Numbered from the whole stretch's first letter, positions 2,908-39,881 are shown. The stretch is DNA of 63,625 bases, filler included, from Dugesia japonica (GCA_001938525.1; 5 parts of 5 records of this genome joined end to end with filler, not necessarily neighbours in it); one strand, 5' to 3'. Program-made: numbers and translations. Notes: generated by a model not told the origin, from the sequence alone.

Positions 2908-5900
2908 AACCATCTAATTATCCTCAAGATTTTAAGTTGGTAACTGTTGGAAGTCCCGATGTTCGCAATGATGATGTTTATACAAAAGTCGCTCTTTATT
3001 GGACGTCTCCTGTTAAAAACAACAGCATCAGATATGATGAAATTATGAGATACATCATATATTTTACTTCTGAACCAAAAGCAGATGTAACAAGTTGGTC
3101 GACGCAAGCTCTGCCTAGTGATCAATATTCCTCTGAAATTAGATTGAATGGATTTCAGAAAATTTACTACTTTCGTGTTGGGTGCCAAACAAAGAATTTT
3201 GAATGCCCTTTATCTCCATTACTACTATATAAAACATCTAATAGTAAGTATTATGATTTTCATAATCTTCTATTGTTAAATGTTTTTAGAAATGAAACAA
3301 AATTATGGATTACTCAGAATACCAGAAAAATATCGATACACAGTTGATATTCCACAGAAATACCTGAATGCTCAACCAGTTTCAACTTTGGATATTGTTA
3401 CAGATGAACCAGTCAATCAACCTAAGGATGTTTGGTATATGATGGTTGGAGGATGTTTTGGTGTTGTTCTACTCTTGATTTTGTTGATTATAATAATTTT
3501 TATTTGGTATAGAAGAAGATCCCAATCATCATTGTAATACTTAATGGTAAAACATAGATATTTTATATATTTGATTATAGTACTGGATACAAACTTGGTA
3601 CAAAATCATCTATTCAGCACATAGGCGGTGCAGGTCTACTTCTTTCTAATCAATCTCCTGCTTTGTCTAATGGAAAGGTTAGTCCGCATTTCGTCAGTAA
3701 TTTCAGTCAGTCGTTGAAAACTCCCGATTTATTCCCTCATCCGGAACCACATTTTGGAGATCTAGAAAGTGATAGTAGTATGCTTTATTGTTTTATTTAA
3801 GATTTTTTACTTATTTATTTATATTTAAACCTTTGTGAAATTTATGTATTTAAAAATATATTAATTCCCAAAATATTATCATAAATTTTGTTGCAAAAGT
3901 TTCTTAATATCACATTATAATTTGTGTCATTTATTAAATGTGGTCTTATCATTACTGGATGTAATGAATGAGTGAGTTCTATTATATCCGACATTAGATA
4001 TCCTGTATAAATTGTCTTATTTCTTATCGGAATTGAGATCATTTTACTGAGAATAATATTTAAAACAAAATTTTCCTTCAATTCTTGCCAGTTGGTTAAC
4101 TAGTGAAATATTTCTTATGAAATATACGCTATCAGAACAATTCTATTTTAAAAATTATTATTACTATTATTGAACTTTTTAAAATTATATTTTCGAGGAA
4201 TCTTTAGTTATGTATGTGGAATACTTTCTTTGATGTAATATAAAATTAATCTACAAGGTTTTATGTGAATATATATAAGATTTTTATAATTACAATTATT
4301 GTGAGAATTATTGTTGGATAATTAATCGCATTTCAGATTTCATTAAAATAAAGAAAAAGCTTCGATCGAAATAATATATATATATATATATAAAATAACA
4401 AAATATTTCGACCTTGTCTTCGTCAGGAATTGATTTTTTGTCAAAAAAAAGTCGAAATATCGAATTTTTATCCAATATCAATAAATAAAACCAAAATTTT
4501 GATCTAAGCTTTTATATTAAATTAATTCTATAAAACGATCAATGGTTATGTCTAACAATTATTCTCGCAATAATTGCAATTGTAAAATTATATATTAAAT
4601 ATTTAATTCTCAACCGATCAACATATTTTTGTGACACATCCTGTAAACAAGTGTTCAATGGACACAAGATATTTTCTTTCAAAATTCTGAAAAACTACCT
4701 CAGTATTTATTTATTTTATCAGTATTATATCAATTAGTATTTTATGAATAATATTTACAAGATATTTATCAACTCTGTTATACTATATATACAACATTTT
4801 AATTTACATCCACATATTTTTGTTACTTTTATTTTTTCCCGCGATATTTTCGTTTTTTATCGTAATTTTTACGTCTTTTCGTAATTTTCAAGTGTGATTG
4901 CGTTTTTGTGTTAATGAAGATCTGAGATAATATAGAATCGAAAGTCGCATTATTAGTATAAATGCATTACATCAAATAAGTTATGAGTTATAACCAAAAA
5001 AATAGGTACAGTTAAAACATTTAATTAAAGGAACAAAGCAATTTAATAAGGCCTTGATAATTATTTTTCATTGTATTTATAGTTTTTTTTTAATTAATAC
5101 TTTAATTTATTTCAACATAAAAAGTTAATAAAAAAGAAAATCAAATTCTAATATATATTTTCTAACATCAAACGACTCGAATAAAAGGTTTTTACATGAT
5201 GATAATAATCGCTTAAATGAACTTCTTTCTCAGAAGCTATTAATTCTCCAAATGTCATTTTGATTATTTCGAATTAATATTAGAATTAAAGTCGAAATCA
5301 GTAAGTTTCTTCCTCAATTTCGTTTTTATTTTGGAGAAATAATTTTTAATCGGGTTCAGAAAAGGACTGTAGGGTAGCTTCCAAATTTTGTGACAATCTG
5401 CTGTAGTGAGGACATCATTTTGGATAGAAGCATTATTGTGGATAAGATAATGAAGCTCTGCTTTAAAGATAATACTTTAATCGTAGATAAAATTTTGATA
5501 TATCGGCTGAGTAACAGATCCTTCAGGGACTTCAAAATGAATAGGTCTTTTTTCCCAATCGCCATCAAAATTTATATGTTTGGTTATCTTTGAGATGGCA
5601 CTTGTAAATATGCCGATTGTACCCTAGCTGCTCGTCCTTTAAATTTTTGTGTCCAAATGTTGCAGTACATTTCGTCTATGTAAACACACTGCTTGGAACG
5701 GACAAAGTTACATAACATATTTTTTACATAATCCCTCCGGAGTTCCTTAACTCTGTCTGAATTCTTCTCAACATTTGAATCTTTTAATTTTTTGAAAGTA
5801 TAAAATTTGTTCTTCAAAAAATTTGAAATGGTTCATGAAGAAACATTGCAGGGGTTTTGTGATAAAAACATTTTCATTTCTTCTAATGTTATGTCCGGCT

Positions 5901-7690
5901 GCTTGTTAATTTCTGCCAAAAGTGCATCCCCCATTTCTTCATTAATTTTTTCTTGTATCCTCCAATTTTACCGAATGAAATTTATCCGGTTTTATTAAAT
6001 CGGTGCAATACATTTTTGATAGTATCTTTATTAATATTGAGGAGCTTCCTTACACTTTTCATATTCTCTTCATTTTCATAAGCGCTGATAATTCGCTTTT
6101 TTGTCAATAGAAGAAATCCTAATAATTTTATAATAGTTTTATTGATTTTTCACGGAATTGTTGCTTCCGAGCTAATACTTGATATGCTTTCGAAATCCCT
6201 CTAAATTAATTAATTAATTAATTAATTAAATTAATTATTTAATTTAATTAATTTTTGTTAAAAGAAGGGTATTACTGAAATGAGATGGATCTTTACTAAA
6301 TTGAAAAATAATGAATGTTAGTCTATAGTACAGTTAAATTAACATTATTCTTTAATACGGTATAAAAAGTCTAATAAAAGAATTTGTTTTGCTCTCGTCA
6401 TTTATAACAGATTACGGACTAGTTATTAAAAAATAAAATTTCTATATTTTAAATACTTATAAAACTATTATTTATTTATTTATTTTATTTATAAAACTAT
6501 TAAGTTTGCCAGTTACAATTACTGTGAGAATAATAGTCGGACTTAACAATTGATTGTATTTATGGTTGCATGAATAAATTATAAGCTTCTATTGAAATGA
6601 TTTCTTAATATTTTATGTTTCCTTTGTACACCTAATTCTGTTTTTACTCGAATTTGATTTTACACGGTTCCAAAAATACTATTGGACCCTGTTTTAACGT
6701 GGTTAAAAATGTTTTTGTTAAAAAAAATATGAAAAAAGTTGACGTTTTTATTAATTTTTCTGATAGTTTTTGTGAAACTATGAATATTTTAGTTTTTTTA
6801 ATGTAAAATTATGCTTTTTTTATAAAATAATTGTTAATTGAAGTGTTTCTTTTCTTTTACTTTTTGTTTAAATAAGTGTGTGTATAAAGAACATAATAAC
6901 CATGAATTTACATTATACATTATTCACCTTATTTTAACTTATTTAAAATGGTAACTTATTTACGTGAGTTGCCATGGAACGTATGTATCGCGAAAAAAAA
7001 ATTCGAATTATTAACAACTAACAACATATTTAAAAAACAACAGTTTGATCGAAGCTTATAATTAAATGAAATCAAATGTAAAGTTGTGTATTCCCATGGC
7101 CACCCTATCTTTTCTTTTAATTTACTCAAAATAAAGTAGAAAAATAATATTGCATTGATTTTCCTTAACTTTTTTGTGTTTAATTGTCTTTCAATGGTGA
7201 AGCACATGTGTATCGTAGCACTATGAATAAATCTAATATGAATCATACGTGATTCACACGACCCCAACGTGTTAGAAAATACTTCTTCCAAATAATAATT
7301 TTGATTATTAATATCTGAAATTGGAAATTATAATAAACTTACAAATAGAATTAAAATAATGTTATTCGTAGTAGTGTTTATTTAAAACATTTTATTTCAT
7401 TTAATAATTTTTGATTTTTTTCCAATTTTTTTTTATAAATTTCCCGCATTTAGATCAAGATAATGACTCACTTCGATTTGCATCTGTATCTCAGCATCAT
7501 CTAGCATCCACTTCTGGTGTAACTAATATGTTCAATCCTACAATTCAGAATCATTCCTTGATCAGATCACATCCACAAATGGTTTCTTACTATTCCGATA
7601 TCCCAAGTCATTCAAAATCAGCAATAAATGCCAGCACAATCCTTAATCCTTTAATTAACAATAGTATTTCAATTCCCATTCAAATACAAG
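2908..7690 (+). CDS. DCC: DCC/neogenin/frazzled-family netrin receptor, partial; exons 2908-3243, 3290-3533, 3581-3777, 7454-7690
   Basis: First exon encodes an FN3 domain resembling DCC FN6 (YIIYFT...W...YYFRVGCQTKNFECPLSPLLLYKT). Next exon has a TM helix followed by YRRR, then the cytoplasmic KTPDLFPHPE (cf. KPPDLWIHHE). GT-AG junctions are phase-compatible (1,2,1). Confidence 0.85.
4282..4586. mobile_element. Foldback non-autonomous element with hammerhead-like cores (family A)
   Basis: Arms are imperfect inverted repeats (CAATTATTGTGAGAATTATTGTTGGA / TCTAACAATTATTCTCGCAATAATTG). Related arms at about 6510-7070, 38025-38800 and 44330-44470. Confidence 0.75.
4406..4427 (-). ncRNA. Minimal type I hammerhead ribozyme core (PLE-type)
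   Basis: Minus strand reads CCUGACGA-A-GAC-AAG-GUC-GAAA: CUGANGA and GAAA boxes with a 3-bp stem II. The cleavage-site region of this copy is degenerate. Confidence 0.6.
5150..6190 (-). pseudogene. Tc1/IS630-type DD(E) transposase relic
   Basis: Minus-strand motifs VYIDE, IHNNASI (cf. MDNAxIH) and LPYSPFLNPI, with frameshifts. Confidence 0.8.
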
Positions 7691-12318: not shown

Positions 12319-12737
12319 TTAATTAATCAAAAAAAATTTGCAAACATAACAAAAAAATATTTTATTATAACAAATAAAGTTATCACACAACATATCATTA
12401 TACATTATTTGCTCGATATCCCATAATGGGATCATAACAAAGTTATTAATCATTTGTTGAAAACCATTAAAAGCATTATTGATATGACATTTTATTGATT
12501 TTTGCATCTTTTTTGATCAATAACATCCAAAGTTGTTATTTTATAACCTGGAAAGTAAAGATAATTCTGTATCAAATCAATAGATTTTTCATCAAAATCT
12601 AAATTAGCATTCAACTGTATCATTGCTTGTCTCATTTTATCCAAATCACATTTGCTCATAATCTTTGTATAAAAAGGTTTGGATTTTTTAATTTCTACAC
12701 TGTCTTCAATATTTACAATAATATGTTCATTCAACAA
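12319..12737 (-). pseudogene. Unknown ORF (probably split) divergent from the Polinton integrase
   Basis: Two overlapping minus ORFs (12492-12737, 12319-12507) directly next to the integrase. Confidence 0.35.
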
Positions 12738-12749
12738 CTGGAAACGACA

Positions 12750-29270: not shown

Positions 29271-30039
29271 TTTCTATTGCTAACGATTTTTGTTACCAAA
29301 AACAGAACCAGAATGTCAAATTCAACTTTAAATGCCTTATGTTTTTTAAAACGTTTTTTAAATCTATAAAGAAGTAACTTGACTAACAACTTGAATAAAT
29401 GTAAACATTATTTTACATGCACCACANNCCCCCCCCATAAATTTCTTTTATTATTTTATGTGTGTGTAACCATTAAAAAGTGTGAACACTTGTTATTAAA
29501 AATTGTATTTAAATGAAATTGCAAAAAAATTTTTATTTTGGTTTTTCTTTTAAGAAATTGCTTTTAAAAAATGATTATAAGATAGTTTTTTAAAAAACAG
29601 ATTTAAATTTTTTGTTTTTGAAAACGGAAAATTATTAAAATCAAAAGTATATTTAAAATTGTATCAAGAAAATAATTTATAAAATAAATTAGTAAATTTA
29701 AGGATTTTTAAAATATAAAATTAAATGAATAAAAGATATTTATTTTAATGTATTTTTTAAAATCAAATATATTTTAAAAAGAATAAAATATAAAATTAAA
29801 TATTTCGAGTTTTCCGTTTTTAAATATGAATTTTGAAATTTGTTTGTTTAAACAATTAATGATTTTTTAGTTTTTATTTTAATAAATTTATGGAGTTGAA
29901 TTAGGATTTTAAGTATTCGACGAGTTTTCCAAACTCTTCTAAAAATGATGAAATTTACATAAAAACTCAAAAATCATTGGTAATTTGTTTTAAAAAATAG
30001 ATGAACACCATTTCATAAAATATTTATTTACTGCAAATA

Positions 30040-31170
30040 ATTTTGACATAATAACCCTCATCATCAGGAAATTAATGATTATTAAAACAAACTTTTTACA
30101 AAGTTTAAATGATTATATAATTTCAATTATGCAATCTCAATACATAATCAATAAAATAATTTTAAGAGCGATGTTGAATCCGTCAACTGAACATTACTTT
30201 TAGGATTTAATGCACTTAACAACAAAACTTCACACATCACTCTTTCCCAATAATTATTAAATACACAGCATAAAATTTTAAAATCAGAAAACCCTATTGA
30301 TTTTTTAAGTTTTCTCCAATGCTCAGCAATATTACTATTTTCACTATTTCGAAAAGGCTCTTGGATTCTGGTGCTGAGATGATGGGAAGTCTCTCCAATG
30401 TATGTGGCGTTACACCGATTACTTTTAAATTGATAAAACAGATCAAAGCACAAGCCTAAAGAAGTTACAGATTTATTATTTAACATATTTATAACCTTTT
30501 GAGGTTGAGATAAAACTTTTAAATTTAAAATATCCTTAAAAGCATTTTCAATTGAAAGTTTAAATTTTGTAAAACTTTCAGAATAAGGTAAAAATAAAAG
30601 AATTTTAGAATTTGTTTCTACAACCTCAGATACGTCCGCACCAGATAAATTACTATTTAATTTATACAATGTTTCATAGACTAATTTGCCTGTAAACTCC
30701 ATACCCATTATTATGAAGTAATTCAATTAGTTTATTTAGACTCTTATCTGCTTTAATAAAAGTAGACGAGAGGGACAAAGAACAATGAATTAGTCCTTTA
30801 ATTATATTGGTTTTCTATTTTATGTCACAGAAACTGGAAGGATTTGTAAACAAACCGATATCAGTTTTCTTTCTATAAATTTTTGTTTCAAAGGAAATAT
30901 TCTTTCTTTTAATAAGCATATCAAGAAACGGAATAGTTGAATTGATCTCTTCTTCAACCGTTAAGCCTATATTTCGATGCGAGTTATTCGTGTACTCCAA
31001 AAACGGATGTACTTGGGAACGATTTTTGAAAACAAGAAAAATGTCATCGATATAACGTTTATAAACCAGAGTTTTAACAGAAAGATAATCATTAATCTAA
31101 CTCTCTAATTTAGACAAAAAAATAGAAGCTAATGCTGAAGCTAATAGGGATCCCATCGCCACAACATCAA
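30040..31170 (-). mobile_element. Penelope-like retroelement (RT plus GIY-YIG), 5' truncated and degenerate
   Basis: VAMGSLL, YKRYIDDIF, IPFLDMLI...IYRKKT, then CNATYIGETS..LSTRIQE (GIY-YIG); CUGAUGA about 80 nt after the stop. Confidence 0.9.
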
Positions 31171-37539: not shown

Positions 37540-38580
37540 CTGGTAAGACATAGTAAAATTGACTCGGAGTTGCTAATAAGTCATATTAAAAATTTAATAA
37601 TAATCAATAAATAAGCAATTTCATCTCTGTGAACCTCTTGCGATATTTGCTTTGCTGCTGGAATTCTCCTTTGTTTCTCCACTTTATGTTTTTGGAATTC
37701 TTCTTGTTCTTCTTGTAATTTACTAGTTTCTTTGATGCGTCTCTTTCTCATTCTCTATACTCCATTGAACATTGATTTGATTTCATCAAATGAAATAGAA
37801 AACTTTTAACCATTTCATTAATAACATCGTTCCGGAAATCCTGGGATTTCGTGCTGAGGAAATTTAACGACTCGTAAAGTGCTCGTATTTCCGAGAAATT
37901 GCATATGACAAATAATATATTTTGAGNNNNNNNNNNNNNNNNNNNNNNNNNNNNNNNNNNNNNNNNNNNNNNNNNNATCGCACACAAACAAACAAACATA
38001 AACCACTGGGTTTATTATTTTATAATTACAAATAGAATTATTGCGAGAATAGTTGTTGGACGTAACCATTGATCTTTTTTCAGAATTCATTAAAATAAAA
38101 GCTTCGATCAAAAATCAATCCCACCAGTAATACTTTGTCCACTTCAATTCATTTGGTATATCCATTAATTTCAGTTTCCTAAACTCTTAATTTTACGGTC
38201 ATTTGCAACTCATAATCTCTCAGTTGTCATTTCAATAACATTTACTCTAGCTCCTCTATCCAATAAACAATCTATCCAAAATCTGATTCCATTTTTTTTA
38301 AACTAGGCATTCCTTGCATAATGTTATAAACAATTTCTGCTTCTTCCTTCGTTTCATCTTTTGTCAAAATAGGAACATTTTCATGTACATTATTTTTTCA
38401 TTTTTAAAAGATCATTCCAGTTATCAAAATTTTCCAAAATCTCACAATTTTCCTCAAATATCTCATCACAATTTCTTTCAATACTTTTATCCATCATTTC
38501 TAATTCCGAACGTAATATTCTATTTTTATCTATCATTACACTTTGATCTATTGATTTTCTCTTATCGTCTATAAAAGAAT
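37540..38580 (-). pseudogene. Ty3/gypsy gag/protease fragments
   Basis: DCLLDRGARVNV aspartic protease motif at about 38240-38275 (minus strand). Confidence 0.55.
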
Positions 38581-38615
38581 TTCTTCAAGGCATATTTATT
38601 TAAGTTATTATTCTT

Positions 38616-38785
38616 TTCATTAAAATAAAAGCTTCGACCAAAAAAATGGTTTTTGTATTTTTGATAATTCCAATTTTCGACTTTGTCTTCATCAAGTCAA
38701 TTCTTGACAAAGACAAACTCGAAAATTAGAATTATCAAAAACACAAAAAAAGTCTTTTTGCTCGAAGCTTTTATTTCAATGAATT
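38616..38785. mobile_element. Foldback element with an inverted hammerhead-like pair (family A)
   Basis: About 80-bp inverted arms; minus UUGAUGA-A-GAC-AAA-GUC-GAAA and plus UUGACAA-A-GAC-AAA-CUC-GAAA. Confidence 0.75.
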
Positions 38786-38804
38786 CTGAAAAGCAATTAA
38801 TCAT

Positions 38805-39881
38805 TTATATAATTAACATCATTTTCAATAACTCTTTACTATCAAACGAATGAATACCATCCGAATAAAATTTGACTTCTTTTCCAGCAAAATAGTTAGA
38901 GAGATCCAATTTCATGTCTTCTAAAGTTTTATAGGTTTTACCTCTTAAAAAGGGTTCGCAATAACAGAAAAGATAATAATCTGATGGGGCAATGTCGGGA
39001 CTATATGATGGATGTTGTAAAACTTCAAACCCTAAATCTCTGATTTTTGATTGAGTTATCTTTGAATAACGCAAGAATAACGCATTTTCAGTTAATCAAT
39101 TCATGACGTTTCTTTGCCAAAACCGATTTTAAAGTATCTAATAGAATAATTCACTGTTGATCGTTTGTCCCGATTCCAATAACTCCCAATGCACTTGTCC
39201 TCTAAAATCCCACCAAACAGATAGTAATGCTTCTTTTTCGATGAAAATTTGGTTTTGAAGACGAAAATGCTTATTGATCTGGACTTAACTATTGGTTTCC
39301 TTTATATATGAATTGTCATCGAATGTTATTATTTGCTTTAGAAATGGGTTCTTTTCATTACGAATAAAGTTTGAATTGCAAAGAGTAATCCTTAAAAAAT
39401 TTTTAAAAATACATCCAAATTCTTGCCTGAAAAGACTTTCCGATTTGAGTTAAATGGTCTCATAGTTTCTCTATTGACTGACATCTTATCGGNTAACTCT
39501 CCACAACTTTACCTCGTATCTAATTCAACCAATTCTCTAAAAAAATGATTGTCCACTAATGACGGTCTTCCTGACATTAGATTGTCCTCAAGACTTCTAT
39601 TGCCAATTCGGGATCTTTCATACCAACGATAGCATTGGGCAACACTTAGACTATTATCATGATAAATTGATTTTAAACGATTGGCTACATCTGAAACATT
39701 TGTGCATAAATCGAATCCATATAACAAACATATTTCTTCACAAAATCCTTGTTAGCTATTTTTTTAATACAAATTTTAAACAATATTTTCACTAAAATTT
39801 ATTAACTGATACATTTAAACATAAAATCAATTTTTGTTACACCAACAACTATTTTCTCATTACTTTTCTGCACCCCTAGTA
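38805..39881 (-). mobile_element. Mariner transposon, degenerate
   Basis: SGRP linker, LLSVWWDF, HPSYSPDIAPSDYYLF; candidate 5' TIR near 39855-39880. Confidence 0.9.

Follow-up and report, generated by a model that had tools for sequence, protein, structure and literature searches.

A foldback repeat family with predicted Penelope-type hammerhead motifs in Dugesia japonica

The foldback, its hammerhead core and neighbouring features

The window, i.e., the whole stretch of 63,625 nucleotides (filler included) that was analysed, is AT-rich with approximately 25% GC and contains much transposon debris. An inverted repeat of 306 bases, copy A, was recognized near its start and is listed with its parts and relatives in Table 1. 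As the original prediction had claimed, this palindrome of about 300 bp is free of ORFs, i.e., no ATG ORF of 20 aa or longer overlapped 4200-4700. The RNA fold of copy A was predicted at -78.6 kcal/mol (z -9.1), and none of 100 shuffles matched it. The terminal arms, 4282-4318 and 4551-4587, were 86% complementary, and self-BLAST gave 68% over 343 nt (E 1e-22). Read ends pile up at 4282 and at 4587/4588, and the flanks beyond these edges are unlike. Both arms carry full tails, not a one-sided tail. The candidate target duplication of copy A is weak, because 11 or more matching letters were reached by 88 of 5000 random pairs, and by 146 of 5000 when the left flank was fixed. Beyond this match, no clear target duplication was found in the five family loci examined in the window.

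Table 1. Coordinates of copy A, its hammerhead parts and related features in the window
Feature	Position	Strand	Remarks
Whole foldback, copy A	4282-4587	.	Two head-to-head arms, 3' tails outward
Left arm, ~158-nt unit	4282-4439	- (hammerhead sense)	Inner boundary in the family is a T run ending at 4438/4439
(TA)n run disrupting left arm	4374-4392	.	Just downstream of the hammerhead; depth near 0 in four runs
Hammerhead core, left arm	4403-4431	-	Matches family majority at every position
Left-arm stem I, 5' strand	4431-4427	-	
Left-arm CUGACGA, then extra A	4426-4420, 4419	-	
Left-arm stem II	4418-4410	-	GAC/GUC, loop AAG
Left-arm GAA, then palindromic helix III	4409-4407, 4406-4403	-	
Centre junction and right-arm start	4440-4453	.	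Apparent core loss of 22 nt between GTC repeats at 4451-4453
Hammerhead second half, right arm	4454-4466	+	GAA-AUAU-C-GAAUU
Right-arm palindrome AUAU; C17; stem I, 3' strand	4457-4460; 4461; 4462-4466	+	
Right-arm 3' tail	4467-4587	+	8-bp stem-loop at 4556-4576; fixed end GTAAAA
Candidate target duplication, weak	4268-4281 vs 4587-4600	+	11/14 letters
Two partial arms	6504-6606, 6998-7078	-, +	Tails outward, ~400 nt apart
Decayed Penelope-like ORF pieces	30030-31096	-	GIY-YIG-like 30148-30726; RT-like 30815-31096
Outer left arm	38018-38114		Separated from 38616-38804 by a ~500-nt decayed coding piece
Related foldback	38616-38804	.	Arm identity 85%; AAUU palindrome; right arm U3 with A8; left arm U3 with G8, plus G17
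Arm terminus outside profile training	43634-43695	-	E 0.0066; TA absent beside the terminal motif
Diverged foldback	44154-44293	.	Hammerhead at 44243 (+)
Solo arm, decayed hammerhead	44330-44474	-	Ends in (TA)n
Distantly related foldback	59157-59462	.	Core at 59289 (-), stem II GAU/AUC

The two hammerhead pieces that had been read from the sequence, i.e., a CUGACGA-A-GAC-AAG-GUC core on the minus strand (4426-4407) and a decayed half on the plus strand, are both present. In the left arm the stem I 3' strand is gone, beside the (TA)n run; reads leaving the left core run on into C17 and the stem I 3' strand. In the right arm, the cut site is predicted 3' of C17 at 4461. This arm seems to have lost 22 nt between two GTC repeats, since the loose-end consensus before 4451 carries the missing core (78 and 79 contigs in two runs). 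Neither of the two arms of copy A is therefore whole, and the strict descriptor misses it for this reason.

The relaxed core descriptor gave five window sites, against a mean of 0.32 and a maximum of 2 in 60 block shuffles. Of the six tight palindromes in the window, four have one of the five sites at their centre; these four elements are mutually related and do not represent four independent origins. The strict descriptor stayed near the shuffle level (one window site, one in eight shuffles) because the window copies are decayed. In the Rfam search of the window and of the five metagenome loci described below, no hammerhead family was detected, and the only matches were miRNA hairpins below the gathering score. 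The centre hairpin of the 59157 foldback (59263-59355) scored 28-42 bits to several miRNA families, below their gathering thresholds, and such foldbacks could be mis-called as miRNA precursors. An isolated CUGAUGA followed by GAAAC at 22472 (+) does not match the descriptor.

Related arms had been predicted at four further places. Homologous arms were confirmed by BLAST at 6504-7078, 38018-38804 and 44154-44474, but the fourth site, 16520-16576, was discarded (profile E 4.2, level with the reversed-window control at E 2.7-4.4). The palindromes 22889-23133 and 45832-46007 were also rejected as members, being degenerate and without CUGANGA. Full arms extend 137-143 nt from stem II to their end and a short arm extends 93 nt; the 38804 arm stops approximately 45 nt short. 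The foldback centres differ among the window elements. In the natural arm of 44154-44293, stems I and II fold on their own. Helix III and stem I fit less well in the 59157 element, and its helix III is poor. No head-to-tail tandem array was found among the window loci.

A decayed coding piece lies between duplicated 29-nt arm segments at 38114-38616, and we take a motif in it to be aspartic-protease-like. The last ~22 codons of the arm at 38018-38070 (-) are open from an ATG and are stopped in the 44330 copy; this open stretch could be the start of a parent ORF or chance. A Pol III B-box-like word in the arm was dropped, as T runs flank the word.

Several other features were found in the window. 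A decayed mariner at 38805-39875 (-) lacks its 3' TIR. A family foldback lies directly against its stop codon, and 31 of 44 letters in its 5' subterminal 45 nt agree with the 38018 arm. A second decayed mariner with 33-bp TIRs is located at 56259-57436 (-). Short AT-rich ORFs, of which one matches an integrase core, are clustered at 12492-16004 and 49174-54833 and are presumably Polinton-type debris; a triplicated ORF was found at 50519-52504. A 382-aa exon of a gene of the wax ester synthase/diacylglycerol acyltransferase family is located at 44661-45809 (-), and the named homologues of a host gene were an annelid and a spider protein (30-35%).

The arm family and its hammerhead motif in public reads

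The family was described from the window loci, from public runs of the same species that were placed twice, and from six loci found by pattern. In the first placement, a 571-nt region was used with 80% likeness and exact seeds. The predicted abundance is well supported, with more than 23,000 contigs per run on the element (23,740 and 23,363 in two runs). A 52-nt query of the core placed about 2,800 per run (2737 and 2852), with a summed depth of 0.74-0.87 million. The summed family depth was highest on the right-arm tail, 4467-4587, reaching 2.7-2.9 million versus approximately 10-20 on the unique right flank. Read depth is not copy number, and the family size, roughly tens of thousands of arms, is a rough reading; it agrees with the density of about 7 loci in the 63 kb window.

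The arm of approximately 158 nt begins about 12 nt ahead of the core and runs to about 140 nt past stem II. Beyond the T run at the inner boundary, copies are unlike each other (agreement 0.42-0.52). The unit of the family is the single arm, not a fixed palindrome.

The original prediction described two inverted hammerheads. Such pairs exist, but they are a minority of the read evidence, and those of copy A are not whole. Tight joints between opposite strands fell at four different junctions. They made up 14 of 296 and 5 of 215 RNA reads, and among contigs 5 of 2737 and 11 of 2852; hairpins are probably under-sampled in reads. Arms more often meet a variably shortened partner or unrelated DNA than a whole partner. 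Among the 15 joints listed, with 79 more outside the listing, 13 connect an arm that carries the core with a shortened partner starting at 4486-4554, and 9 of these 13 leave the first arm at 4437-4441. Some of the shortened partners could also be deletions at hairpin tips, and the copy A right arm appears to be such a deletion.

The motif combined from the two arms of copy A proved to be the majority form of the family. This form keeps CUGANGA, GAAA and UH, as had been expected of the consensus, and has the G10.1-C11.1 pair, an unpaired base between A9 and 10.1, and a helix I of 4-5 bp. The predicted 4-nt palindrome in helix III was found as AUAU and as AAUU, both in four runs. AUAU with C17 was counted in 145, 110, 122 and 131 reads or contigs (loose ends of runs X22, X23, X2 and X3, respectively), AUAU with U17 in 35, 30, 30 and 25, and AAUU in 55, 26, 53 and 53, of which three consensus lines have C17 and one has A17. 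These are the displayed rows; 56 loose-end rows lie outside them, and single-change intermediates between the palindromes may be among those.

A dimeric helix III requires a palindrome, and both forms are palindromic; the bases allowed at position 17 are C, U and A. In the aligned part of the motif, loop II was the only common change (32% of contig depth). G12 and C11.1 varied by 3-5% and the other core letters by under about 2%, a low variation that is partly built in, since 80% likeness and exact seeds favour conserved cores. The diverged window elements showed changes at N7, the extra base, loop II and one stem II pair. One window arm has U3-A8, a pair that is reported in the hammerheads of PMC4209133, and one has G17; most window arms are decayed. 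The variation thus appears to follow hammerhead rules, i.e., palindrome swap, position 17 and loop II. By its sequence features, the family motif is assigned to the minimal type I hammerheads of Penelope-like elements (PLEs).

The predicted fold of the hammerhead is very weak, i.e., -2.6 kcal/mol for the monomer and -0.8 kcal/mol for the dimer, versus -74 kcal/mol for the whole hairpin. If the motif cuts, it likely does so as a protein-assisted dimer in the source RNA, not in read-through transcripts of the foldback. A search across sequencing runs listed no RNA run with the element, which has no bearing on its expression. RNA reads of the same species, from fragmented poly(A)/cDNA libraries, covered both strands with no pile-up of ends. 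Reads ran across the predicted cut site in 235 of 296 and 166 of 215 cases, a read-through that is uninformative on cleavage with fragmented libraries and embedded copies.

Two observations were made at the arm ends. Past 4587, the loose-end consensus begins with the same few letters in four runs, with overall agreement of 0.45-0.57; some copies possibly run into a parent element, in which case the arms would be abortive copies of the 5' end of an autonomous RNA. One contig of run X2 joins the arm head to the tail end (4438 to 4282) across 38 extra nt and is a possible head-to-tail precursor junction.

Head-to-head analogues in metagenomes

A generic head-to-head pattern was searched in metagenome contigs and gave five loci (L001-L005). 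All five are palindromes of 100-280 bp, a shape that the pattern itself favours. The strict descriptor was matched by an arm in four of the five loci, in features that the pattern had left free. These loci from other animals are analogues of the copy A family, not homologues (best profile E 0.24). The exact family motif gave no match in viral and metagenome contigs, and the generic pattern gave none in viral contigs. Its single match in prokaryote genomes was rejected as chance, with no palindrome present.

L002 and L005 belong to one family placed at different sites. Each has a target duplication of 14 of 15 letters and a one-sided tail of approximately 32 nt, whose end resembles the arm end of the copy A family. 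Their centres are nearly the same and are flipped relative to the tail. The distances from stem II to the end in L005 are 135 and 100-104 nt. In the other three of the five metagenome loci, no target duplication was found. Duplications of 12-15 bases and a one-sided tail, as read in the analogues, are marks of Penelope insertion.

The element at 1377-1661 of L002 and 1377-1657 of L005 is a young head-to-head element of another animal. Both of its hammerhead motifs are intact, it has a target duplication and a tail, and it would suit bench work better than copy A. No core is present in the second palindrome of L003, which was rejected. The reading frames flanking L003 and L005 are presumably vertebrate genes.

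Origin of the foldbacks and comparison with known systems

The minimal hammerhead of PLEs, as described in PMC4209133, has a short helix I, an unpaired base after A9, G10.1-C11.1 and a palindromic 15.2-16.2, and in Schistosoma, hammerhead pairs were reported 100-700 bp apart on opposite strands in the same source. Descriptions of PLE insertions include an inverted 5'-truncated copy (PMC8557442; PMC3846280), and the core-bearing arm with its variably shortened partner fits such a copy. The PLE literature, taken together, describes minimal hammerheads in pseudo-LTRs, 8-10-bp duplications and an optional 30-40-bp tail (PMC4209133, PMC11167929, PMC3846280, PMC8557442, PMC6765202, PMC7229834, PMC5753468, PMC6431247, 10.64898/2026.07.22.740005). 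For the anole PLE, it is reported that reverse transcription starts 111-118 nt past the start of stem II, that both strands are extended and that hammerhead cleavage is not needed (PMC11167929).

It is reasonable to consider that the foldback is probably a stump-sized insertion, made by a PLE reverse transcriptase/endonuclease that primed on both strands. A PLE protein dimer would nick both strands of AT-rich DNA, and each nick would prime reverse transcription, which would begin inside the RNA tail at a fixed position. The cDNA would extend across the uncut hammerhead as far as the RNA 5' end. The two cDNAs would be joined where they meet, giving a foldback with tails outward and a variable centre, and one-sided events would give solo arms. 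Selection would act on the hammerhead in the source RNA, where it would work as a dimer, probably with the aid of protein. In most inserted foldbacks the hammerhead would be inactive, the arm being mutated or locked in the long hairpin. The source RNA may be a short transcript that is non-autonomous, or it may be the 5' end of the message of an autonomous PLE.

No autonomous partner was found in the window. The decayed pieces at 30030-31096 were rejected for this role, as arm homology was absent and their hammerhead is different (a decayed hammerhead-like motif at 30067). The GIY-YIG-like piece had a feature score of 0.96 to GIY-YIG clusters, and Pfam and homologue searches of the 30-31 kb pieces were blank. 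The RT label of 30815-31096 is our assumption from a motif.

A bolder idea on the hammerhead itself, which we hold to be rather unlikely, is that it serves as a clamp between RNAs and not mainly as scissors. The palindromic helix III would hold two template RNAs near their 5' ends, one reverse transcriptase-endonuclease dimer would copy both into the two nicked strands, and the cDNAs would meet just upstream of the hammerheads. If true, this would explain why the head-to-head junctions are centred on ribozymes, why the palindrome is selected although the predicted fold is weak, and why insertion is reported to proceed without cleavage. A share of the "MITEs" in animal repeat libraries would then be retro-insertions.

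Compared with insertion from both strands, it is improbable that a palindromic non-autonomous retroelement was re-copied whole as a unit with two hammerheads, its shortened partners being later deletions. Four tight foldbacks in 63 kb, a copy A centre that is common to other contigs (at least 8 per run cover 4403-4447), the nearly identical flipped centres of L002 and L005, and the probable under-representation of hairpins in reads would suit a unit of this kind. However, the four tight junctions occur at low counts with mixed sequence past the inner boundary, the window centres differ, and a read-through transcript would be a hairpin of -74 to -79 kcal/mol that hides the motif.

More doubtful still is a DNA transposon, i.e., a mariner-type MITE or foldback, with long TIRs and a captured PLE hammerhead as passenger. 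Its ends would be the sharp and symmetric ones seen here, which can be read as TA within TTTTA/TAAAA; one foldback abuts the stop codon of the mariner at 38805-39875, and the arm terminus resembles the 5' end of that mariner. The likeness is partial and subterminal with different terminal bases. The shuffle fractions for five arms were 0.003, 0.009, 0.023, 0.19 and 0.33, of which the best (3 of 1000) was found after the fact, and the ends of the second mariner showed no similarity. Against a transposon, the 6504 and 43634 termini lack TA, no conserved TA follows the terminal A run in reads, and length and centre are not fixed. The swap of palindromes and C/U/A at position 17 are also unexpected for a passenger, and the analogues show duplications of 12-15 bp with one-sided tails. 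A MITE with fixed TIRs and TA duplications fits worse; fixed TIRs and TSDs matching a DNA transposase family had been named in the original prediction as grounds against its own reading.

It is very improbable that a retrozyme-like circle of approximately 160-195 nt was opened at an A run and inserted in monomers of unit length. In its favour, an A run stands at both arm ends, one contig is joined head to tail across 38 nt, and tandem hammerhead retrozymes are reported to derive from PLE pseudo-LTRs (10.64898/2026.07.22.740005). Against it, the window loci include no tandem array, and what follows the inner boundary is not the end of the tail. Retrozyme hammerheads are also described as canonical with loop-loop contacts (PMC7229834), which the 3-bp stem II here lacks.

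The insertion of PLE stumps from both strands is thus preferred. The component features are already known, and the locus reveals no new class of ribozyme or mobile element. The abundant ORF-less head-to-head hammerhead family was not found described in the full-text literature searched, which largely excluded subscription papers and did not include Repbase or Dfam. The role of the hammerhead in PLEs and the origin of inverted arms are open questions in the literature consulted. The family, which is reduced to the module from hammerhead to tail and has thousands of independent junctions in one genome, is a natural data set for both, and it offers the existing in vitro PLE assay a minimal RNA. 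In annotation, hairpin repeats of this kind resemble MITEs and would be classed as DNA transposons.

Palindromic Tc1/mariner MITEs, e.g., MADE1, are like the present family in size, hairpin shape and abundance. The family differs from them in its variable centre, in having no invariant TA duplication and in a hammerhead that seems to vary by ribozyme rules.

Animal non-LTR retrozymes, as described in PMC7229834 and 10.64898/2026.07.22.740005, are similarly short, non-coding, PLE-linked and high in copy, with a type I hammerhead. They are head-to-tail tandems by definition, whereas the arms here are inverted or solo.

The hammerheads described by Cervera and De la Pena in 2014 (PMC4209133) share with the family type I topology, a helix I of 4-5 bp, the extra base after A9, G10.1-C11.1, the palindromic remnant of helix III, the U3-A8 variant and a location mostly away from ORFs. 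Unlike the examples given there, the family has a helix II of 3 bp (7-8 bp in Schistosoma), arms that lie about 0-25 nt from each other, and a copy number of roughly tens of thousands.

In the PLE insertions described in PMC3846280 and PMC8557442, head-to-head arms of about pseudo-LTR size with tails outward, a variable junction and AT-rich sites are found as they are here. The present family has no ORF and no direct pseudo-LTR pair, and consists of the inverted junction module alone.

Biochemical tests are reported for the anole Poseidon element PAc (Frangieh et al. 2024, PMC11167929), which is autonomous, unlike the family here, which is known from sequence. PAc and the family have in common a fixed end approximately 100-140 nt past stem II, a hammerhead that is uncut in inserted copies, and a stem-loop at the end.
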